64,000 nucleotides of DNA from Bacteroidales bacterium (lineage in GTDB: Bacteria > Bacteroidota > Bacteroidia > Bacteroidales > JAGOPY01): positions 1,588 to 65,587 of the forward strand of contig JAHYJL010000001.1 in NCBI GenBank assembly GCA_019429045.1. Reading direction: 5' to 3'. Positions within the stretch are counted from its first letter, which is position 1, and the number at the start of each line of letters is the position of its first letter. Shown in pieces: positions 9,313 through 54,189 of the stretch. The position numbers and the translations under genes were made by a program. A model generated the notes under the pieces. The model was not told where the DNA came from. It was given only the letters and a program-made list of their open reading frames with translations, and searched no databases.

Positions 9313-10779
9313 ATGATTAACAGAAAATATTTCCTCCGCATTTTATGGATCACAATCTGGATTCTAGCCGCGCACATCAACATTCTGGCAAATACCTATT
9401 ATGAGGGTGAACCGAAGAACGTTAAATATGTGTTTTTATTTATCGGCGACGGCATGGGCCATGCACAGGTCAGCACCACGGAAGCATACCTGGCAGCGCT
9501 TAAAGGCAATACCGGATTCGAGCCGCTCAATTTTTCCGGCTTTCCACACATAGGTCAAAGCACCACATATGCCAACAACCGGTTGATCACCGGTTCCGCA
9601 GCGGCCGGTACAGCGCTGGCCACAGGTAAAAAAACCAATATCAACCGTATCTCTATGGACCCGGCAGCAACGGTTCCTTACGAAACCATAGCGGAAAAAG
9701 CGAAAAAGCAAGGCTTTAAGGTTGGCATTGTGACCAGCGTCTCGATCGACCATGCCACCCCGGCTGTTTTTTATGCCCACCAACCCGACCGCGATATGTA
9801 TTTTGAAATAGGCATTGATTTGATAAACAGCGGATTTGATTATTTTGCCGGGGGTGGTTTCCTGATCCCCGACGGCATGTGGAACGATCAGGAGGTGAAC
9901 CTGACCACCCTGGCGGCTGAAAAAGGTTACGCTGTGGTCAATTCCGCAGAAGCCTTCCGGAACCTGAAACCTGGCAACGGAAAATCACTGGTTCTATCAC
10001 CCAGGACAGCGGGCGGGGCCTCGCTGCCTTATGCCATCGACACCCATCCCGGCGACCTGACACTGGCCGATTTTACGGCAAAGGGGATTGAGATGCTTTC
10101 AGGAGATGAAGGCTTTTTCATGATGATTGAAGGGGGGAAGATCGACTGGCTGGGCCATGCCAACGATGCGGCTTCTTTGGTTCGCGAGATGATCGCTTTT
10201 AGCGAAGCTGTGGACAAAGCATTGGATTTTTATCACGAATACCCTGAAAACACGCTGATCATTGTCACTTCAGACCATGAAACGGGTGGACTGTCGCTCG
10301 GCCATGTCGCCACGAAATATGAAACCAATGTGGAATTGTTAAAGTACCAGCGCTCATCGGTGGAAGAGCTGAACAAGATCGTCGCCCATTTCCGGGTAAA
10401 CCAGTCGGGTGATTCTGAAGAAGATTTTAACCGCATGCTGCGGGCGCTGGAATTCGACCTGGGCCTGCACAACAGGAAGTACGGGACCCTGCTGGATGAT
10501 GAGGAAATGGCTGTCCTCAAAGAACTTTTCATGACGACCGTTATGGGTATCGGAACCGAAAAAGGGTCGTATGGGTACTCCGAACCTTTCATGGCCAAAG
10601 CCATCGAGATCATGAACAAGAAAGCGGGCATTGCCTGGGGAACAGGTTCGCATACCGGCGTCAATGTCCCGGTTTACGCCATCGGAACAGGTGCAGAACG
10701 ATTTACCGGGGTGATAGATAATACGGATATTCCGAAGATTATCGGGGAGCTAATGGGAGTTCTGAGTTCTGAGTTCTGA
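9313..10779 (+). CDS. Alkaline phosphatase (PhoA family), secreted
   Basis: 488 aa ORF with a signal-like N-terminus and the motifs FIGDGMG, ...DHATPA... and ...TSDHETGG.... Confidence 0.9.
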   Translation: MINRKYFLRILWITIWILAAHINILANTYYEGEPKNVKYVFLFIGDGMGHAQVSTTEAYLAALKGNTGFEPLNFSGFPHIGQSTTYANNRLITGSAAAGTALATGKKTNINRISMDPAATVPYETIAEKAKKQGFKVGIVTSVSIDHATPAVFYAHQPDRDMYFEIGIDLINSGFDYFAGGGFLIPDGMWNDQEVNLTTLAAEKGYAVVNSAEAFRNLKPGNGKSLVLSPRTAGGASLPYAIDTHPGDLTLADFTAKGIEMLSGDEGFFMMIEGGKIDWLGHANDAASLVREMIAFSEAVDKALDFYHEYPENTLIIVTSDHETGGLSLGHVATKYETNVELLKYQRSSVEELNKIVAHFRVNQSGDSEEDFNRMLRALEFDLGLHNRKYGTLLDDEEMAVLKELFMTTVMGIGTEKGSYGYSEPFMAKAIEIMNKKAGIAWGTGSHTGVNVPVYAIGTGAERFTGVIDNTDIPKIIGELMGVLSSEF

Positions 10780-10874
10780 GTTCTGAGTTCTGAGTTCTGA
10801 GTTCTGAGTTCTGAGTTCTGAGTTTTGAGTTCTGAGTTCTGAGTTCTGAGTTCTGAGTTTTGAGTTTTGAGTTA
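10757..10874. repeat. (GAGTTCT/GAGTTTT) heptamer array, about 17 units
   Basis: Read directly. It begins 21 nt before the phosphatase stop codon and encodes ...VLSSEF-stop. Confidence 0.95.
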
Positions 10875-10886
10875 CGGATTTAATCT

Positions 10887-10930
10887 TACAGTCCTACAGT
10901 CCTACCGTCCTACAGTCCTACCGTCCTAAC
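10887..10930. repeat. (TACMGTCC) octamer array, about 5 units
   Basis: Read directly. It overlaps the aspS 3' end, where the minus strand reads ...R-T-V-G-L-stop. Confidence 0.9.
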
Positions 10931-13446: not shown

Positions 13447-13478
13447 AACACTTGAACACCCGAACACTTGAACACTCT
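13447..13478. repeat. (AACACYYG) octamer array, 4 units
   Basis: AACACTTG AACACCCG AACACTTG AACACTCT, ending at the radical SAM stop codon. Confidence 0.85.
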
Positions 13479-16207: not shown

Positions 16208-16254
16208 ATTCACCACAGATTTCTCAGATTTACACAGATTTATCACAGATAATT
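16208..16254 (+). repeat. CACAGAT-word element, copy 1
   Basis: TTCACCACAGATTTCTCAGATTTACACAGATTTATCACAGATAA, starting 17 nt after the stop of the preceding + gene. The first 22 nt are identical to the copy at 38106. Confidence 0.9.
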
Positions 16255-16260
16255 AAGCAT

Positions 16261-16292
16261 AAATTCAACATTCAAAATTCAAAATTTAAAAC
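16261..16292. repeat. (AAATTCA/AAAATTC) A/T-rich heptamer-like array
   Basis: AAATTCAACATTCAAAATTCAAAATTTAAAAC, read directly. Confidence 0.7.
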
Positions 16293-16634: not shown

Positions 16635-17870
16635 ATGAGCGAACTGATCAACAACTCCGAAAAGCGCAAGGAGCTGCTCAAGCATATGATCCTGCAGCTT
16701 CATGCCGGCGAAGCGCCGGCTGAAGCGCGCAAGCAACTGGTTAACCTGCTGCAGAAAATCCCCTACGGCGAAGTGGTGGAGGTGGAGCAGGAGCTGATCT
16801 CCGAAGGGACCCTCAGCGAGGCTGAAGTGCTGCAATTTTGCGATATCCACAGCGAAGCGCTGGACGGCCATATCGACCTGTCGGGAATGAAAATCGTGCC
16901 CCCGGGGCACCCTGTCGATACCTTCAAAAGGGAAAACAAGGAACTCCTGAAAGTGGTCGATCAACTCGAAGAGCTTTATAAAAAGGGAGCCTCCCTGAAG
17001 GATGAAACGGATATCTCACCCTGGTTCCTGGAGATGAAAACCCTGTTCAACAGCCTGATGGATGTGGAAAAACATTATCTCCGCAAGGAAAACCTGGTAT
17101 TCCCCTACCTGGAGAAATACGGCATCACAGGCCCTCCCAAGGTAATGTGGGGCAAGCATAACGAGATCAGGGAATTGCTGAAAGCAGCCATCGAGGTACT
17201 GAACAACCCGGAGGGACTCCATCCCGAAGAGGCCACCGCCGCCGTGCAGCTAATCCTGAAACCGGCATCCGACGGTGTGGCAGATATGACCATGAAAGAA
17301 GACCAGATCCTGCTACCGATGGTGATGGATAAACTATCGGATATGGAATGGTACGAGATATACCGCCAGACGCTGGAGATCGGTTTTTGCCTGTACGACC
17401 CCGATATTGAATGGAAGCCGGAAAATATCGATGAATCGCAGTTGGAAGTATCCGACAGCGACCTCATCCAGCTTCCTTCCGGCAGCTTCACCAAAGCCGA
17501 ACTGCAGGCTATCCTGAACACCCTTCCGGTGGATATGACATTTGTCGATAAAGACGAGAAAGTCAGGTACTTCAGCCAGGGGAAAGAGCGGATTTTCCAT
17601 CGCAGCCGGGCGATCCTGAACCGGGATGTCAAGCTGTGCCATCCGCCGTCGAGCGTGCATGTGGTGGAACAGATCCTGGATGACTTCAAGAGCAGCCGGC
17701 AGGATCATGCCCCCTTCTGGATCCAGATGAAGGGGAAGTTCATCCACATCGAATACTTTGCCCTCAGGGATGAAAACGGCAATTACCTCGGCACCCTCGA
17801 AGTCTCGCAGGACCTCACCGGCCACCGCGCCTTGGAAGGCGAACAACGGATACTTTCCTATTCGAAATAA
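16635..17870 (+). CDS. DUF438 family protein (hemerythrin-like plus PAS-like domains)
   Basis: 411 aa ORF with the architecture typical of NO/nitrite-responsive clusters. Confidence 0.7.
   Translation: MSELINNSEKRKELLKHMILQLHAGEAPAEARKQLVNLLQKIPYGEVVEVEQELISEGTLSEAEVLQFCDIHSEALDGHIDLSGMKIVPPGHPVDTFKRENKELLKVVDQLEELYKKGASLKDETDISPWFLEMKTLFNSLMDVEKHYLRKENLVFPYLEKYGITGPPKVMWGKHNEIRELLKAAIEVLNNPEGLHPEEATAAVQLILKPASDGVADMTMKEDQILLPMVMDKLSDMEWYEIYRQTLEIGFCLYDPDIEWKPENIDESQLEVSDSDLIQLPSGSFTKAELQAILNTLPVDMTFVDKDEKVRYFSQGKERIFHRSRAILNRDVKLCHPPSSVHVVEQILDDFKSSRQDHAPFWIQMKGKFIHIEYFALRDENGNYLGTLEVSQDLTGHRALEGEQRILSYSK
17212..17225. repeat. Copy of the iterated word (AGGGACTCCATCCC)
   Basis: Inside the DUF438 CDS, read as P-E-G-L-H-P-E. 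Confidence 0.9.
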
Positions 17871-17962
17871 AACATTCGAAACACAAAACACGAAACACGA
17901 AACACAAAACACGAAACACAAAACACGAAACACGAAACACAAAACACGAAACACGAAACACT
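17871..17962. repeat. (AACACGA/AACACAA) heptamer array, about 13 units
   Basis: Fills the whole spacer from the DUF438 stop codon to the GTG of the next gene. Confidence 0.95.
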
Positions 17963-36732: not shown

Positions 36733-36801
36733 TCTGTAAAATTAGAAAAATCCTGCTTTTTATTATTAACCGCCCCAGTTCATAAAAAAGCATATAATCA
36801 C

Positions 36802-38105: not shown

Positions 38106-38152
38106 TTCACCACAGATTTCTCAGATTAACACAGATTCAGCACAGATTAACG
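38106..38152 (+). repeat. CACAGAT-word element, copy 2
   Basis: TTCACCACAGATTTCTCAGATTAACACAGATTCAGCACAGATTAACG, starting 3 nt after the tyrS stop codon. Confidence 0.9.
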
Positions 38153-38178
38153 AAAACTCAGAACTCAGAACTCAAAAT
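38153..38178. repeat. (AACTCAG) heptamer array, about 3.5 units
   Basis: Same unit family as the arrays at 42514 and (reverse complement) 10757. Confidence 0.85.
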
Positions 38179-38193
38179 TTAATGAGTCCCCAA

Positions 38194-38224
38194 CTAAAAC
38201 CTTAAAACTCAAACCTTAAACCTA
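38194..38224. repeat. (AACCTTAA/AACTCAA) word array
   Basis: CTAAAACCTTAAAACTCAAACCTTAAACCTA, running into the cysS stop codon. Confidence 0.75.
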
Positions 38225-39712
38225 CTCCGCCATCTCCCAGCTCGCCCCTTCCTTCCCATCCTTAATCTGAATATTGATCTTCAACAGCTTGTCCCGGATC
38301 TGGTCTGAAGTGGCGAAATCTTTCTTCGCCCTTGCTTCGGCCCGGATATCGATGATGGTCCCCATCAGGCCGTTGATAATCTCGTCCTTCTTCCCCGATT
38401 GTTCCTCCGGCACCAGGCCGAGGATATCCACCAGGAAGGTGCGGTAAGTCTGGGCCAATACAACCATATCATTTTCCGGCAACTTCTCCTTGCCCTCCTT
38501 CACCGCGTTGATGATCCGCAACGCTTCAAACAACTGCGCGATTACCACCGTGCTGTTGAAGTCGTCGTTCATGGCAGCGTAGCAGGCAGCGCTTACCTCA
38601 CACCCTGGCCCCCTCTCCAATTGGAGAGGGGGAACAGGGGGCCGGGGGGTTAAGGGGGTGAGGCACTGGAGCCCCGCGAGCAATCTTCGCAGTCCTTTCT
38701 CGCTCGCCTGCAGCGCTTCGTTGGAGAAATCGACCGTGCCGCGGTAATGGGCCTGCAGGATGAAGAACCGGATCGTCATCGGGCTGTAGGCCTTTTCGAG
38801 CAACGGGTGGTTGCCGGTGAAGAACTCTTCCAGGGAAACGGCGTTCCCCAGCGATTTGCCCATCTTCTGCCCGTTGATGGTGATCATGTTGTTGTGCATC
38901 CAGTATTTCACCGGCATCTTATCGTTCGCAGCTACTGACTGTGCGATTTCCGACTCATGGTGCGGGAAAAGCAGGTCCATTCCCCCGCCGTGAATATCGA
39001 ACTGCTCGCCCAGGTATTTGGTGCCCATGGCTGAGCACTCCAGGTGCCAGCCGGGGTAGCCTTCGCCCCAGGGGGAAGGCCAGCGCATGATGTGCTCGGG
39101 CGTGGCCTTTTTCCATAAAGCGAAATCAAAGCTGCTCTTCTTCTCCTCCTGCCCTTCCAGTTCGCGGGTGTAAGCCAGCAGCTCATCCACCTTACGCCCC
39201 GAAAGAACCCCGTAAGGATGCTTTTTGTTGTATTTTTCTATATCGAAATAAATGGAACCGTTTCGCTCATAGGCAAAACCGGCGTCCAGTATCTTCCGGA
39301 TCATCCCGATCTGTTCGATGATATGGCCCGAAGCGTGCGGCTCGATGCTGGGATGCAGCACGTTCATCATCCCCATCGCTTCATGGTATCGGTTTGCATA
39401 ATACTGCACCACCTCCATCGGCTCAAGCTGCTCCAGGCGCGCCATTTTGCCGATCTTGTCATCACCCGCGTCGGCATCGCCTTCCAGATGGCCGACATCG
39501 GTAATGTTCCGCACATACCTGACTTTATAGCCGATGTGTTGCAAATAACGGAATACCAGGTCGAAGGTGACGGCCGGCCGCGCATGCCCCAGGTGCGGAT
39601 CACCGTAAACCGTAGGTCCGCAAACATACATGCCGACATGCGGAGGGCTGAGCGGCTCGAAAAGCTCTTTCTTCCGAGTCAGGGAGTTGTGGATGAAGAG
39701 ATTGTTTTCCAT
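38222..39712 (-). CDS. cysS: Cysteine--tRNA ligase
   Basis: The conserved sequence starts at [18 protein letters not shown] (ATG at 39712; the track ORF extends upstream to 39820). HIGH-type (PHLGHAR) and KMSKS-like (KMGKS) motifs are present. Confidence 0.95.
38609..38658. other. 24 nt perfect palindrome plus four G5-6 tracts embedded in frame in cysS
   Basis: CCCCCTCTCCAATTGGAGAGGGGG occupies 38609..38632. G-tracts lie at 38628-32, 38637-41, 38644-49 and 38654-58, with loops AACA, CC and TTAA. Confidence 0.9.
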
Positions 39713-39810
39713 TATTGACTTGATCTTAGGGCAAAAGTAGTGAATCTCTTCCTTTTTATTAACAGTATCGGGTATAAATGAAGCTTTTCCGGTATTAATG
39801 GATATCGTGT

Positions 39811-39854
39811 TTAACCACAAAGGGCACGAAGGGTTTTCACGAAGGACACAAAGG
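39811..39854. repeat. Left inverted-repeat arm flanking the GxxExxY gene
   Basis: TTAACCACAAAGGGCACGAAGGGTTTTCACGAAGGACACAAAGG, built of CACRAAGG words. Confidence 0.9.
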
Positions 39855-39885
39855 AATACTCATATAATTTAAGAAAGGAGTAAGT

Positions 39886-40257
39886 ATGATAGATGAAGTG
39901 ATATTTAAGAAAACTTTGGATTGTGCTTTTAAAGTTCACAGTTCATTAGGTCCGGGATTATTAGAAAGTTCCTATGAAGAGTGTCTTTATTATGAACTGA
40001 AAGCAATGGGATTGATGGTGGAAAAACAAAAGCCTATGCCATTGGTTTATAATAATGTGCATCTTGATATTGGCTACCGAATTGATTTGATTGTAGAGAA
40101 TTCTGTGATTGTTGAGATAAAATCAGTCGAGGCAGTAAATGCAGTTCATTATGCTCAATTATTGACTTATATGAAACTGTCCCGTTGCCGTTTGGGATTA
40201 TTGGTAAATTTCAATGTTGCACATTTGAAAGAAGGAATAAAGCGATTAATTCTTTAA
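39886..40257 (+). CDS. GxxExxY family protein
   Basis: 123 aa ORF with ...GPGLLESSYEECLYYEL... (GxxExxY). An AAGGAG lies 8 nt before the ATG. Confidence 0.8.
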   Translation: MIDEVIFKKTLDCAFKVHSSLGPGLLESSYEECLYYELKAMGLMVEKQKPMPLVYNNVHLDIGYRIDLIVENSVIVEIKSVEAVNAVHYAQLLTYMKLSRCRLGLLVNFNVAHLKEGIKRLIL

Positions 40258-40262
40258 TAAAT

Positions 40263-40307
40263 CCTTGGTGTTCCTTGGTGAAAACCCTTCGTGCCCTTTG
40301 TGGTTAA
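40263..40307. repeat. Right inverted-repeat arm flanking the GxxExxY gene
   Basis: The reverse complement is TTAACCACAAAGGGCACGAAGGGTTTTCACCAAGGAACACCAAGG. Its first 30 nt are identical to the left arm. Confidence 0.9.
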
Positions 40308-40367
40308 ATAAGAAGGAGATAAAAGAATCTTTTTTAATTACACATATCACATTAGTTTAATATTAAC

Positions 40368-40375
40368 TACCTTTG
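40368..40375 (+). promoter_or_regulatory. Candidate -7 box (TACCTTTG)
   Basis: TAnnTTTG match about 60 nt upstream of the EF-G start. Confidence 0.35.
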
Positions 40376-40397
40376 CACCCCGTTTTAAAATCCCTGA

Positions 40398-40426
40398 CTT
40401 AAACCTTAACCCTTAAACCTCAAAAC
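40398..40426. repeat. (TTAAACC/TTAACCC) heptamer array, about 4 units
   Basis: CTTAAACCTTAACCCTTAAACCTCAAAAC. The words are related to those at 38194..38224. Confidence 0.75.
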
Positions 40427-40435
40427 TTTACAAAA

Positions 40436-42514
40436 TTGCCACTACATAAACTTAGAAATATCGGCATTGCCGCGCACATCGATGCCGGCAAGACCACCGT
40501 AACGGAAAGAATCCTGTTCTACACCGGCGTCACCCGCAAGCTGGGTGAGGTCCACGACGGGCAGGCGACCACCGACTTTATGAAACAGGAACAGGAGCGC
40601 GGGATCACCATCGCTTCGGCGGCCATATCCTGCTTCTGGAAAGACGCGCATATTAACCTGATCGACACCCCGGGGCACGTCGATTTCACAGTAGAAGTGG
40701 AACGCTCCCTGCGGGTGATCGATGGTATGATCGCCCTGTTCTGCGCCGTTGGCGGCGTGGAACCGCAAAGCGAGACGGTCTGGAACCAGGCCGACCGCTA
40801 CCGGGTGCCGCGTATCGCCTTCATCAACAAAATGGACCGCACCGGCGCAGATTTTTACGACGTCGTGAACCAGATGAACCAGGTGCTCGACGCCAATGCC
40901 GTGGTTATCCAGATCCCGATGGGCGCGGAAGATGAATTCGAAGGCATTATCGATGTCATCGAAGGTATCGCCTATCGCTTTGATGATAAAGGGAGGATCG
41001 AGACCCCCGTTCCTGAGCAATACAAGGATAAACTGGCAGAAGCCAGGGCGCAGCTGCTTGAAAAGCTGGCCGATTTTAGCGATGAAGTGGCCGAATTATT
41101 CCTGGAAGATCGGGAAGTCAGCAATGAACTGCTGAAAAGAGCTGCCCGAGAGGCCACCCTCCGGCTCAACATCACCCCGGTGTTATGCGGTGCGGCCTAT
41201 AAAAACAAAGGCGTGCAGCTGCTCCTGGATGCGGTTATCGATTACCTGCCATCTCCGCTCGACATCGGGGCAGTGATAGGCACCGACATCAATAACCCCG
41301 AAAAATCCAATGTGCGGCATCCATCGGCAAACGACCCGTTCTCTGCCCTGGCCTTCAAGCTGATCAATGATCCGTTTGTCGGGCAACAAACCTTTGTACG
41401 TGTATATTCAGGGCTGCTGAAAAGCGGCATGCAGGTACTCAATTCTACCAAAGATAAGCACGAGCGCATCGGGAGGATCATGAAGATCCACGCCAAGAAC
41501 CGGGAAGAGGTCAGCGAAGCGGGCCCGGGAGATATTGTAGCCCTCATCGGTCTGAAACTCACCAAAACCGGCGATACCCTTTGCGATCCGGCGCACCCGC
41601 TGCACCTGGAATCGATTACCGTACCGGCAACCGTTATCGAGATGAAGATCAGCCCGGCTTCCCGCAAGGACCAGAGCAAGCTCGGCGAGGCCCTGCACAA
41701 GCTGACTAACGAGGATCCCTCTTTCAACGTGAGATACGATGAAGAAACTGAGGAAACGATCATCGCCGGCATGGGCGAGCTTCACCTGGAGATCATCATC
41801 GACCGGCTGAAGCATGAGTTCGGGGTGGAGGTGGATGTCAGCGAACCGTCGGTAGCTTACCGGGAAACAATCACTACCGAAAGGGAAGCCTCCTACCGCT
41901 ATTCCAAGCAAACCGGCGGCCGCGGCCAGTTCGCCGAAACCCATTTCCGGATCGAACCCAACGAGGGCAACGGCTACGAGTTTGTCGACCGCATCAAGGG
42001 CGGAGCCATCCCGACCGAATTTGTGCCCTCGGTTAACAAGGGTATCGCGAAAACCCTCGAAAAAGGCGTCCTGGCCGGGTTCCCCATCGTGGATGTCCGC
42101 ATCGTGCTGCACGACGGCAAATTCCACCCGGTCGACTCATCCGACATGGCCTTCCAGACCTGTGCATCGATCTGCTTCAAGGAAGGCTTCATGAAGGCCC
42201 ATCCTATCCTGCTGGAACCGATCATGAAAGTCGAGATCAACACCCCGGACGATTACATCGGCGATATCACCGGCAACCTGAACAAGCGCCGCGGCAGGGT
42301 CGAATCCATGCGCCGGCACCGGAAAGGGTCCCAAAAAGTCGTCGCTTTCGTGCCACTGGTGGAAATGTTCGGTTATGCTACCGCGTTGCGTAATATCTCC
42401 AGCGGCCGCGCCAGCTTCTCCATGGATTTCTTTCAGTACATGCCGCTCAGCAAATCGGTGCAGGAGGAAGTGCTGAAGAAACTGGCCGAGAAAAAGGCGG
42501 CCATGAAGAAATAA
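40436..42514 (+). CDS. Elongation factor G (paralogue outside the str operon; TTG start)
   Basis: 692 aa ORF with G1 motif AHIDAGKTT and EF-G domains throughout. Confidence 0.9.
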
Positions 42515-42574
42515 ACTCAAAACTCAGAACTCAAAACTCAGAACTCAGAACTCAGAACTCAGAACTCAGAACTA
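42514..42574. repeat. (AACTCAR) heptamer array, about 8.5 units
   Basis: Runs from the last base of the EF-G stop codon (42512..42514) to the kbl stop codon (42572..42574). Confidence 0.95.
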
Positions 42575-43978: not shown

Positions 43979-44340
43979 ATGAAAAAGTTCTTTAAAATTC
44001 TGCTATGGATTGGTTTTGTGCTGGTCCTGGTTATCGTTGTGTTTTTCAGTTATGTACAGCTATCCTGGAAGAAAACCTTTGATGCCCCATATCCTGACAT
44101 TGTGGCCAGTGATGATCCTGTTTTGATCGAGCGGGGCAAATACCTGGCTTATGGTCCGGCACATTGCGCCGTTTTAAGAGCGGAAGGGTACACAAGGGAA
44201 GCCCCATGCCATGGGGATGCTTTTCCCGCATGGATGAAGATGATATGAAAGCGCTGTATCGCTATCTTAAATCGCTGGAACCGGTGGAGTTTGCCACAGG
44301 CAAAACGGTTTACTCCCCCGGAGAGGTGCTCCCCAGGTAA
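43979..44340 (+). pseudogene. Degenerate c-type cytochrome fragment, copy A
   Basis: N-terminal TM segment, then ERGKYLAYGPAHCA, where the haem motif is lost. A frame change then leads to ...MPWGCFSRMDEDDMKALYRYLKSLEPV.... This looks like a collapsed cytochrome c. Confidence 0.6.
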
Positions 44341-52806: not shown

Positions 52807-53133
52807 CTTTGTGCTGGTCCTGGTAATCGTTGTGTTTTTCAGCTATGTGCAACTATCCTGGAAAAGAACCTTTGACGCCCCTTATCCTGACATTGTGGCC
52901 AGCGATGACCCTGTGCTGATCGAACGGGGAAAATACCTGGCTTATGGTCCGGCGCATTGCGCCGTTTTAAAAGCGGAAGGGTACACAAGGGAAGCCCCAT
53001 GCCATGGGGATGTTTTTCCCGCATGGATGAGACTGACATGAAAGCGCTGTATCGCTATCTTAAATCGCTGGAACCGGTGGAGTTTGCCACAGGCAAAACG
53101 GTTTACTCCCCCGGAGAGGAGCTTCCCAGGTAA
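52807..53133 (+). pseudogene. Degenerate c-type cytochrome fragment, copy B
   Basis: Collinear with 44014..44340 over 327 nt, with roughly 20-25 mismatches counted by eye. It carries the same internal collapse as copy A. Confidence 0.6.
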
Positions 53134-53434: not shown

Positions 53435-53542
53435 GCTTACCCTGGAAATACGTTCCGTGTTCAGATTTGATGAATAACAGGTCTCTTACAGAAACGATCA
53501 CCTCTTCCCTTCCGTAAATCGCGGTTGAATGGGTGCCTCCCC

Positions 53543-53585
53543 CCTTTGTGTACTTTGTGATACCCTTCGTGTCCTTTGTGGTTAA
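53543..53585. repeat. Solo copy of the GxxExxY-cassette arm (right-arm orientation)
   Basis: CCTTTGTGTACTTTGTGATACCCTTCGTGTCCTTTGTGGTTAA. Compare with 40263..40307. Confidence 0.85.
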
Positions 53586-54016
53586 GAAAAAAGGATAAAA
53601 TAGACAAAGAAAAACCTACCATTGATCTAAGCATCCAGGATGCCTTCCCGGTGAATTGCGACACCCTGTATTTCGGTGAATCCTTCACCATGAGAGTACG
53701 CTTCACCGATAATGTGGAACTGGGTTCATTCAGCATTGAGATCCATCAGAATTTCGACCATCATTCCCACAGCACAGAGGTCACCGAATGTAACATGGAT
53801 CCCATCAAAGCGCCAGTCAATCAGTATCTCTTCATCCAGGACTACGACATCCCGGCCGGACTGAGCGAGCATGTGACCGATCTGACCATTACCATTCCGT
53901 CAGGAAATGCCCATGGCCCGTTTGATACCGGCGATTATCATTTATACATCAGCCTGACGGATGCCGAAGGCTGGTCGGCGCAGAAGGGGCTGAGTGTGAA
54001 GATGGTGGGGAGGTGA
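53576..54016 (+). CDS. DUF4625-like protein, apparently 5'-truncated
   Basis: ...KDKIDKEKPTIDL...FTDNVELGSFSIEIHQNFDHHSH... The only available start is a TTG inside the repeat arm, and no signal peptide or lipobox is present. Confidence 0.55.
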   Translation: MWLRKKDKIDKEKPTIDLSIQDAFPVNCDTLYFGESFTMRVRFTDNVELGSFSIEIHQNFDHHSHSTEVTECNMDPIKAPVNQYLFIQDYDIPAGLSEHVTDLTITIPSGNAHGPFDTGDYHLYISLTDAEGWSAQKGLSVKMVGR

Positions 54017-54102
54017 GGGAGAAGAGGGGAAGAGGGGAAGAGGGGAAGAGGGGAAGAGGGGAAGAGGGGAAGAGGGGAAGAGGGGAAGAGGGGAAGAGGG
54101 GA
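54015..54102. repeat. (GGGGAAGA) octamer array, about 11 units
   Basis: Begins within the stop codon of the DUF4625-like gene. Confidence 0.95.
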
Positions 54103-54189
54103 ATTATGTGATTGTCGGTTTTCGATTTTATGGCACGCGGATGAGGCGGATCGGGGCTACAAAGGCTGCACCGGACGAAGCTTTATTTA

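Follow-up and report, generated by a model that had tools for sequence, protein, structure and literature searches.

The GxxExxY gene analyzed here lies at positions 39886-40257 (+) of a 64-kb stretch of DNA from a Bacteroidales bacterium (hereafter the window, to which coordinates refer unless a locus is named), between cysS (38222-39712, −) on one side and an EF-G-like gene (40436-42514, +) on the other. The gene encodes 123 amino acids and is enclosed by two arms in inverted orientation, with which it forms a cassette of 33% GC in flanks of 55%. The left arm (39811-39855, +), which reads TTAACCACAAAGGGCACGAAGGGTTTTCACGAAGGACACAAAGGA, consists of TTAACC followed by four CACRAAGG words with starts 9, 13, and 9 nt apart, and the right arm (40262-40307, −; TTAACCACAAAGGGCACGAAGGGTTTTCACCAAGGAACACCAAGGA when reverse-complemented) is of the same build, inverted, and begins 4 nt past the stop codon. 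A hidden Markov model (HMM) of the arm recovered the two at 39808-39854 (E 2.7e-10) and 40262-40311 (E 2.1e-9), and a repeat search of the window located the inverted repeat at 39805-39846 and 40272-40313 (42 nt, 93% complementary, 425 nt in between). An earlier reading of the window, made from the sequence only, had claimed a 123-aa GxxExxY gene boxed by inverted arms with identical outer 30 nt, and our analysis bears this out (30 of 30 positions match; the arms are 45-46 nt long). The same reading gave four CACRAAGG words to each arm; this holds for the left arm, whereas the right arm carries two exact words and two CACCAAGG variants. Over the window, CACRAAGG occurs 10 times, compared with 4.0 ± 1.9 in shuffled sequences, and six of the matches are in the cassette arms and three in a solo arm at 53543-53589 (see below).

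The AAGGAG box highlighted as strong in the sequence-only reading is indeed located 5 nt ahead of the ATG (39875-39880, +), and a second AAGGAG follows the right arm at 40313-40318 as described. Nevertheless, we rejected the Shine-Dalgarno box as a feature of the family, as a Shine-Dalgarno-like 4-mer precedes the gene in only 15 of 82 family loci. The proposed unit of ~500 bp between cysS and the EF-G-like gene was confirmed as a cassette, but the conserved unit is larger and extends leftward to ~39750. blastn and alignments revealed a leader to the left of the left arm (39750-39810, +), with TTAAC at 39759-39763 and a TATAAAT box at 39773-39779, which is conserved with the cassette copies of two related loci, L001 and L089, and with a remnant in a third, L090 (see below for the details). 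Judging from its letters, the leader may serve as a promoter. A conserved promoter borne by the cassette was considered and rejected, because the GGGTATAAA box was found solely in the window, L001, and L089 copies, and because a simple sigma-70 promoter scan at the cassette yielded nothing convincing. An Rfam scan of 39600-40500 with E-values up to 10 returned noise only and no family match.

The profile searches placed the protein in PF13366 (PDDEXK_3; E 1.4e-41, 141.9 bits against a curated cut-off of 22) and TIGR04256 (E 1.9e-43, 147.5 bits against a cut-off of 35). The motifs are G24-L-L-E27-S-S-Y30, D67, E77-x-K79, and Q91xxxY95; among 86 homologues, D67, E77, and K79 are invariant or nearly so, and Q91xxxY95 is invariant. 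The AF2 model built from the 86 homologues had a pLDDT of 87.4, and its best Foldseek match in the PDB was Cas4 SSO0001 (4ic1; probability 0.96-0.99, TMq 0.52, root-mean-square deviation 4.0 over 101 columns), followed by LHK-Exo (3syy), lambda exonuclease (1avq), 9iac, the Cas4-family ACE1 protein and, lower down, splicing endonucleases. The E-values of these matches are modest (8e-3 to 0.2). A Pfam scan gave only PF13366 and a weak Cas4 match, and a sequence search of the PDB with the family profile gave no match. The structure prediction, proposed with the sequence-only reading as a check for a nuclease fold, supports a PD-(D/E)XK fold of the Cas4/RecB/lambda-exonuclease branch. The fold and the D...ExK and QxxxY motifs are common to the Cas4/RecB nucleases and the GxxExxY protein, but the latter is half their size, lacks the cysteines of the Fe-S cluster and a CRISPR context, and bears only marginal sequence similarity to them (E 1e-3 to 5e-3). 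No transposase (DDE, HUH/Y1 of the IS200/IS605 type, serine, or tyrosine) was recognized in the cassette protein by profile scans. The family is very large: at least 7,999 of the 8,000 candidate proteins scored were homologous at E <1e-5. No homologue was detected in a phage collection by tblastn. No biochemical report on the family was found in the literature searched.

The boxed architecture is conserved across the GxxExxY family. We fetched 80 loci of relatives with 60-73% amino acid identity from species genomes (mostly Bacteroidota, some Ignavibacteria, and one Terriglobia), and aligned the 150-nt upstream flank of the gene with the reverse-complemented downstream flank of equal length. 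The score of the inverted flanks was above the 99th percentile of the shuffles (medians 34 vs 16) in 71 of 85 loci, a count that takes in the window and L001-L008 besides the fetched relatives. Once syntenic loci were collapsed, 82 loci corresponded to 43 distinct genomic contexts; the inverted repeat was significant in 31 of the 41 scorable contexts, and at least one flanking arm was detected in 36 of the 41. The anatomy of the arm is constant, namely TTAACC at the outer end (at times TTTACC, TTAAAC, or TTCACC) and then four CRCNNAG words with starts approximately 9, 12-13, and 9 nt apart, 42-47 nt in total. The right arm begins 0-10 nt past the stop codon, and the outer end of the left arm lies 40-120 nt ahead of the start codon. 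In all 82 loci, the GC content of the gene is lower than that of the flanks. Among the arm pairs oriented '>...<' and spaced by 150-1600 nt in all the DNA collected, 69 of 73 enclosed GxxExxY; other gene families as regular occupants were rejected, as they were boxed in the remaining four pairs only, three of which are weak. Records of a plasmid collection extend the word flanks to other lineages. Flanks of the type TTCACCACAGAGGACGCAGAGG... surround the gene of Bacteroides finegoldii, GAACCGCAGAGGACGCAGAGG hairpins that of Gemmatirosa (Gemmatimonadota), and CACAGAGA words are on both sides of the Bernardetia gene. In Sphingomonas, CGCGAAGG-type words reach the ATG on the upstream side only, and the Treponema locus has only a short inverted repeat of 11 nt. 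Altogether, a very large family of 'hypothetical proteins' (PF13366) is now tied to a fixed non-coding architecture.

A similar architecture was found around an unrelated family, the four-helix-bundle proteins known from the intervening sequences (IVSs) of 23S rRNA genes. The annotated genes (TIGR02436/PF05635) were fetched with an approximate probe that is 62% identical to the real genes. Each of these genes is boxed by inverted arrays of its own word: (TAGTGAT)n vs ATCACTA in Bernardetia, (GTCGGAR)n vs (CGACYTC)n in Nostoc punctiforme, GATGAAG words in Chlorohelix, GTGGAAA vs CCACTCT in Treponema, and a AATTAGGAATGAG inverted repeat in Monoglobus. In plasmid records (L243-L246), the four-helix-bundle genes reside inside operons of defense systems or mobile elements, between hsdS and hsdR in Monoglobus, a helicase and an N6-methylase in Chlorohelix, and cas2 and cas1 in Anabaena, and the Nostoc gene adjoins tnsA. 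In Flavobacterium, ruvC and a hemW-like gene enclose the four-helix-bundle gene, and the GxxExxY cassette follows one spacer downstream. The four-helix-bundle gene is boxed by (AGTGTTC)n/(GAACACT)n (L028 1305-1822, L067 1060-1750, L039 1130-1750, and L055 800-1450) and the GxxExxY cassette by CGCAAAG arms. Thus, the identity of the word belongs to the cassette, not to the host. No four-helix-bundle gene was matched in the window by tblastn with six proteins of this family.

The IVS of Coxiella burnetii contains the S23p open reading frame (ORF) and an inverted-repeat stem cut by RNase III, and a variable number of tandem GACAGAT heptamers precedes the ORF; decay of the ORF was noted and horizontal transfer was suggested (PMC4990558). 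The GxxExxY cassette resembles the IVSs of C. burnetii and Leptospira in its size (0.4-0.6 kb), in the single small ORF within inverted repeats that form a long closing stem (42 nt and 93% complementary in the window, ~47 bp when folded), in the short tandem words beside the ORF, and in the sporadic distribution accompanied by evidence for horizontal transfer and, in some lineages, by ORF decay (PMC4990558). On the other hand, the cassette is located between cysS and an EF-G-like gene rather than in a helix of 23S rRNA, it encodes a PD-(D/E)XK protein (PF13366) rather than the S23p/23S_rRNA_IVP four-helix bundle (PF05635, TIGR02436), and its arms follow a fixed design, TTAACC plus four CRCNNAG words, that is conserved across phyla. 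Excision by RNase III was demonstrated for Coxiella (PMC4990558), whereas it would be expected for the cassette by analogy. The GxxExxY protein family and the rRNA IVS elements themselves are already known; the limited literature searched did not yield an account of the arm architecture, of how it co-varies with the clades of GxxExxY, or of the design shared with four-helix-bundle cassettes outside rRNA genes.

The placement of the cassette between genes is operon-like. GxxExxY points the same way as both neighbors in 56 of 75 loci (29 of 39 independent contexts). The median gaps of 74 nt upstream and 79.5 nt downstream barely exceed the arm length, and the upstream stop codon falls at −4 to +10 nt of TTAACC in 27 of 43 loci. 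The gene occurs within gene strings such as fabD, GxxExxY, and fabG in Sphingomonas, and radA, GxxExxY, and a gene for an FAD-dependent protein in B. finegoldii. When 39800-40320 was folded as RNA, the minimum free energy was −169 kcal/mol, compared with −114 ± 5.6 kcal/mol in shuffled sequences (z −9.7). The arms made up the ~47-bp closing stem in this fold, by construction, because they are an inverted repeat. As the spanning RNA folds with the arm stem, any transcript that covers the cassette would hold an RNase III-type substrate.

Because the design is shared with characterized IVSs, the placement is operon-like, and the packing is tight, the reading that we tentatively favor, at a little under an even chance, is that of an IVS-like cassette residing between co-directional genes, with arms that loop out the ORF in RNA and a Cas4/RecB-like nuclease as its product. 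The cassette would be a self-contained unit of a short leader, the nuclease gene, and the two inverted ~45-nt arms. In a transcript made by read-through or from its own promoter, the arm duplex would, by analogy to IVSs, be a processing site of the RNase III type, and processing would separate or silence the cassette RNA, so that the insertion would be tolerated and the expression of the nuclease kept low. The nuclease may serve the persistence or spread of the cassette itself, for instance through cleavage of arm-bearing DNA sites or of DNA close to them, after which repair would copy or retain the cassette; the arms could supply ~45 bp of homology for exchange between cassettes.

Several observations weigh against the arms being merely an RNA stem. 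The upstream gene in the window, cysS, is divergent, and the left arm is transcribed only if there is a promoter in 39750-39810, while a TATAAT-like hexamer between the left arm and the gene (39863-39868) could start transcription past the left arm. The two arms keep the words but vary in the spacers between them, and the CRCNNAG pattern is retained from phylum to phylum; on the face of the sequences, such kept words with varied spacers look more like sequence-specific recognition than a plain stem. Covariation that preserves pairing between the arms was not found by comparing arms within and between loci of Flavobacterium: in 13 syntenic loci, the identity between the left and right arms is 0.82 within a locus and 0.80 between species (0.84 for left arms between species). 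The mismatches between arms are mostly transversions (193/305), and those compatible with G-U wobble pairs on the plus-strand RNA are not enriched (41 vs 71 of the opposite kind). Finally, solo arms, which occur in the window and in phage-like contigs, cannot form a stem, and none of the 66 stretches of phage-like contigs with 87 arm matches contained a GxxExxY gene.

The conserved words with variable spacers and the lack of pairing covariation agree better with an alternative at the DNA level, which we regard as the main rival and as only somewhat less probable than the IVS-like reading. It takes the arms as terminal inverted repeats, that is, arrays of nuclease-binding sites at intervals of approximately one helical turn, the end or the cleavage site being TTAACC, and the cassette as a minimal mobile or semi-domesticated unit, comparable to systems of the repetitive extragenic palindrome (REP)/RAYT type or to homing elements. 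The arm-only copies (solo arms, hairpin pairs, and arrays) would then be non-autonomous derivatives or target sites. The distribution of the words is also in favor of this alternative, as the word variant tracks the protein clade, not the host. Clade A of Flavobacterium has CGCAAAG/CGCAAGG words and clade B CACAAAG/CACAAGG words; the two Draconibacterium loci carry CAC (L012) and CGC words (L081), and of the Prolixibacteraceae loci, three have CGC words and one has CAC words. Of 25 arms more than 700 nt away from the gene, 24 share the word class of the GxxExxY arms at their locus. Likewise, GxxExxY and four-helix-bundle cassettes hold different words not only in the Flavobacterium loci but also in one Bernardetia replicon. 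The IVS-like and DNA-level readings are not mutually exclusive.

Over evolutionary time, intergenic spacers have acquired and lost cassettes, exchanged one for another, or retained remnants of them. The nearest homologues of the window protein (92-93% amino acid identity; L001-L008) are encoded in the opposite orientation in the spacer between tyrS and an epimerase gene, one gene pair from the cysS/EF-G spacer on the same syntenic backbone. The window and L001 aligned without gaps over 581 bp at 92.4% identity (39730-40310 and L001 3845-4425 in blastn), in contrast to 72-82% for the flanking housekeeping genes, and the homology runs ~60-80 nt to the left of the left arm. The synonymous divergence (dS) is 0.21 for GxxExxY but 1.03 for tyrS, 1.37 for cysS, and 1.55 for EF-G, which is 5-7 times higher. 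A set of 80 metagenomic loci, anchored on cysS and picked regardless of GxxExxY, provided three informative relatives. At the same spot upstream of cysS, L089 (85% identical in cysS at the amino acid level) possesses a different GxxExxY allele (69% identical) with arms of its own, and L090 (79% in cysS) lacks the gene but retains a decayed leader and a decayed left arm. In the window, the epimerase/tyrS spacer, where L001-L008 hold an intact cassette, contains a leader-like TTTTTTATGAACTGGGGCGG fused to TTAA (36760-36791, −), which is possibly the scar of a lost cassette. The right arm of the window has been converted to the sequence of the left, as the outer 30 nt match at 30 positions in the window and at 26 of 30 in L001.

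The cassette is thus polymorphic for presence at a conserved site and diverges out of step with its flanks. The idea of a minimal cassette put forward in the sequence-only reading is well founded in these data, namely a discrete AT-rich unit found in another spacer and orientation in the nearest relatives at 5-7-fold lower dS, replaced by another allele in L089 and reduced to a remnant in L090. The copy of low dS in the other spacer and the arm conversion are in accordance with the DNA-level alternative, but neither a target-site duplication nor a clean empty site was found, and the boundary of homology on the left is ~60-80 nt outside the left arm. In the comparison of filled and empty spacers, a TTAA target-site duplication was not demonstrable, as TTAA was seen at the right junction and, in a single copy, in the empty site, with no counterpart duplication on the left. 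We also considered a simple inversion that moved the cassette between the tyrS and cysS spacers. The junction sequences reject inversion models, because both spacers retain leader-like sequence.

The history in Flavobacterium is different and weighs against frequent movement. The gene is syntenic across many species in the order of ruvC, a hemW-like radical SAM gene, GxxExxY, and a cyclase gene; it matches the flanks in dS (ratio 1.09) and has about half their nonsynonymous divergence (dN, ~0.57). Presence at the orthologous site in all relatives with ordinary divergence, which the sequence-only reading had named, together with GxxExxY paralogues free of flanking repeats, as refuting its idea, was not observed at the locus in the window, but orthology was in Flavobacterium, where the cassette is orthologous and diverges normally. 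Thus, we regard the cassette as mostly a stable resident under purifying selection, not an active jumper, with occasional transfer, relocation, replacement, and loss. The vertical inheritance under purifying selection is compatible with the DNA-level alternative, as RAYTs are inherited in the same manner. Another reading is that the arms merely control expression. The word arrays would be operators, or sites in RNA, by means of which a potentially toxic nuclease is kept tightly repressed by the protein or by a host factor, with the boxing unrelated to mobility or RNA excision. We consider this improbable. The two arms held to their consensus, their position right next to the ORF on its 5' and 3' sides, and the purifying selection on the gene speak for it. 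Left unexplained are the arm-only copies remote from the gene and in phage-like contigs, the relocation, allele swap, and remnants, and the recurrence of the architecture with an unrelated protein family, also within the IVSs of rRNA genes.

The arms are also found without the gene. The arm HMM detected exactly three copies over the window, the two at the gene and the solo arm of the cassette type at 53543-53589 (−; TTAACCACAAAGGACACGAAGGGTATCACAAAGTACACAAAGG, E 8.1e-10), and tblastn found no second GxxExxY gene or remnant in the window, including the vicinity of this solo arm. A generic arm pattern occurred five times in the window but 0.17 times in shuffled sequences. Two solo arm-like elements were missed by the arm HMM: that at 38106-38152 (+), 3 nt past the tyrS stop codon, is built of TTCACC and words of a second type (ACAGATT/TCAGATT/CACAGATT), and that at 16209-16262 (+), of the TTCACC/CACAGATT type, shares its first 22 nt with the former. 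Both elements (TTCACCACAGATTTCTCAGATT[T/A]ACACAGATT...) lie soon after a stop codon, and their CACAGAT word is reminiscent of the Coxiella IVS with its GACAGAT heptamers and of a Chitinophagaceae locus (L035) with CACAGAT arms.

In other genomes, arm-only hairpins or local amplification of arms beside the gene were seen in L009, L026, L055, L077, L085, and L087, in favor of the DNA-level alternative, and further arm-only copies were documented in L011, L023, L027, and L042 besides L026. Arrays of alternating arms adjoin the gene in L009, L077, L085, and L055. In a Saprospiraceae metagenome-assembled genome (MAG), there are four tandem 174-bp units (L087 3333-4034). Each unit repeats the end of the GxxExxY ORF (~30 nt, GIKRVANEL*) and the right arm, followed after 7 nt by a forward arm, which looks like local amplification across an arm junction. 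In a Bacteroidaceae MAG (L026 1350-1440, 5027-5130, and 6160-6260), back-to-back arms of the form [words..GGTTAA]-13 nt-[TTAACC..words] share a conserved 13-nt spacer, AYACGTANNGAGR, and are located in three ordinary intergenic spacers, one pair bracketing an epimerase gene. The arms are rare in DNA chosen regardless of the gene, in agreement with the DNA-level alternative; the 80 cysS-anchored loci contained two weak arm matches only, apart from the gene-bearing L089.

The arms of the phage-like contigs, retrieved with the pattern TTAACCACRAAG-N(2,3)-CACRAAG, are mostly intergenic and in the sense orientation (37 with both neighbors on the same strand vs 18 with both on the opposite strand, approximately half of the latter being the second halves of hairpins). 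The TAA of TTAACC is the stop codon of the upstream gene, the words extend to the next start codon, and some of the arms form face-to-face hairpins of ~100 nt. These arms, together with the back-to-back arms in the ordinary spacers of L026 and the many tandem word arrays of the window that start right past stop codons, could suggest that the arms are generic intergenic signals, that is, leader- or terminator-like repeats that accompany many host or phage genes, between two of which GxxExxY tends to sit. We regard this as very improbable: GxxExxY is what the spaced arm pairs enclose in 69 of 73 cases, the word type goes with the clade of the protein and not with the host, two of only three arms of the cassette type in the 64-kb window are at the gene, and the cysS-anchored Bacteroidales loci are nearly free of arms save the one with the gene. 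Overall, generic host signals and pure control of expression explain less of the data than the IVS-like and DNA-level readings. The phage-like contigs are problematic for the DNA-level alternative as well, as they hold arms without the GxxExxY gene, and neither the sense bias of their solo arms nor the strong co-orientation of the cassette with its neighbors is expected of a pure DNA site. Furthermore, the cassette encodes no known transposase chemistry, and to our knowledge no transposon relies on a PD-(D/E)XK nuclease alone.

The closest parallels at the DNA level are the REP/REPIN-RAYT systems, which reportedly consist, as does the cassette, of a gene for a DNA-cutting enzyme flanked by an inverted short repeat, with the repeat also occurring solo and as hairpin doublets in intergenic regions, the repeat type co-varying with the enzyme clade, and inheritance being mostly vertical under purifying selection. 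They differ in that the cassette enzyme belongs to PD-(D/E)XK rather than the HUH/Y1 transposases and that the arms are direct arrays of words instead of palindromic REPs. The documented dispersal of the cassette arms amounts to one solo arm in the 64-kb window plus the arm-only copies in a few loci. Free-standing homing endonuclease genes, exemplified by the seg/mob genes of phage T4, and the PD-(D/E)XK homing enzyme I-Ssp6803I offer a second parallel. Common to these and the cassette are a small AT-rich nuclease gene in a spacer between conserved genes, usually in the same orientation, polymorphism in presence and allele among close relatives, and identity discordant with the flanks. Homing endonuclease genes lack conserved inverted arms at their flanks, however, and the GxxExxY gene is stably syntenic with normal dS in Flavobacterium.

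The sequence-only reading had further proposed a link between the GxxExxY family and the word arrays of the window. The link stands as an association, in that the arms are themselves word arrays, four-helix-bundle genes are boxed by tandem heptamers, and the elements at 16209 and 38106 share the arm build with another word. We can envisage, as an unlikely extension, that the GxxExxY and four-helix-bundle cassettes together represent a large undescribed class of protein-coding 'intervening elements' in spacers, operons, and rRNA genes, in which each protein would recognize and propagate its own word by cutting and repair or by slippage, and that the arm-only repeats originate from the cassettes, as do some heptamer arrays akin to the short tandemly repeated repetitive (STRR) sequences. 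If so, at least some of the STRR-like arrays at the 3' ends of genes in this genome, cyanobacteria, and some phages would be derived from cassettes. The STRR heptamers reported for cyanobacteria are likewise intergenic tandem arrays; the Nostoc punctiforme four-helix-bundle gene is boxed by such arrays, and many arrays of the window start past stop codons, but the GxxExxY arms comprise four irregularly spaced words and not perfect tandem heptamers. Owing to the shared design, two enigmatic protein families and the unexplained short-word repeats become one problem that can be approached experimentally.

Perfect tandem arrays of 7-8-mers in the window are found at 1989-2052, 10757-10928, 13447-13476, 16261-16291, 17877-17961, 38155-38223, 42514-42573, and 54015-54103. 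Many of them start 0-8 nt past the stop codon of the preceding gene, on its sense strand, for instance (CGAAACA)12 after the gene ending at 17870; another example is (GAGGGGAA)11. (AACTCAG)8.6 exactly fills the spacer between the convergent EF-G and kbl genes, and the AACTCAG family, to which the arrays at 38155 and 42514 belong, recurs in reverse complement at 10757 as (GAGTTCT)16.7. The window (40398-40428) and L001 (680-710) both retain a (CTTAAAC)n/(GGTTTAA)n array upstream of the EF-G-like gene, while the rest of this spacer is unalignable between the two, the backbone being ~80% identical.

The arms and cassettes affect genome annotation. Cassettes split operons such as fabD-fabG, and the arms create spurious ORFs and false N-terminal extensions, as in the window ORF at 53461-53736 (−) and the proteins P0058, P0111, and P0035. 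The tell-tale peptides NHKGHEG, LTTKDTK, NHKGHEGYHKVHKG, SLTTKDTKVVTKFHKG, and FVSLCGKK could be used to find arms in protein databases. The cysS genes of the clade to which the window belongs (window 38600-38700, −; L089 3700-3850; L090) contain an in-frame insert rich in proline and glycine, which is longer and internally repeated (ERGPGGEVEWHHKEKGPGGEV) in L089; the shorter match lengths of most of the 80 cysS relatives suggest that they lack it. Two ORFs of the window, 43979-44248 and 52811-53041, share a near-identical stretch of ~70 residues (…VLVIVVFFSYVQLSWK[KR]TFDAPYPDIVASDDPVLIERGKYLAYGPAHCAVL…) and represent a gene fragment duplicated ~9 kb apart, the second copy being near the solo arm.

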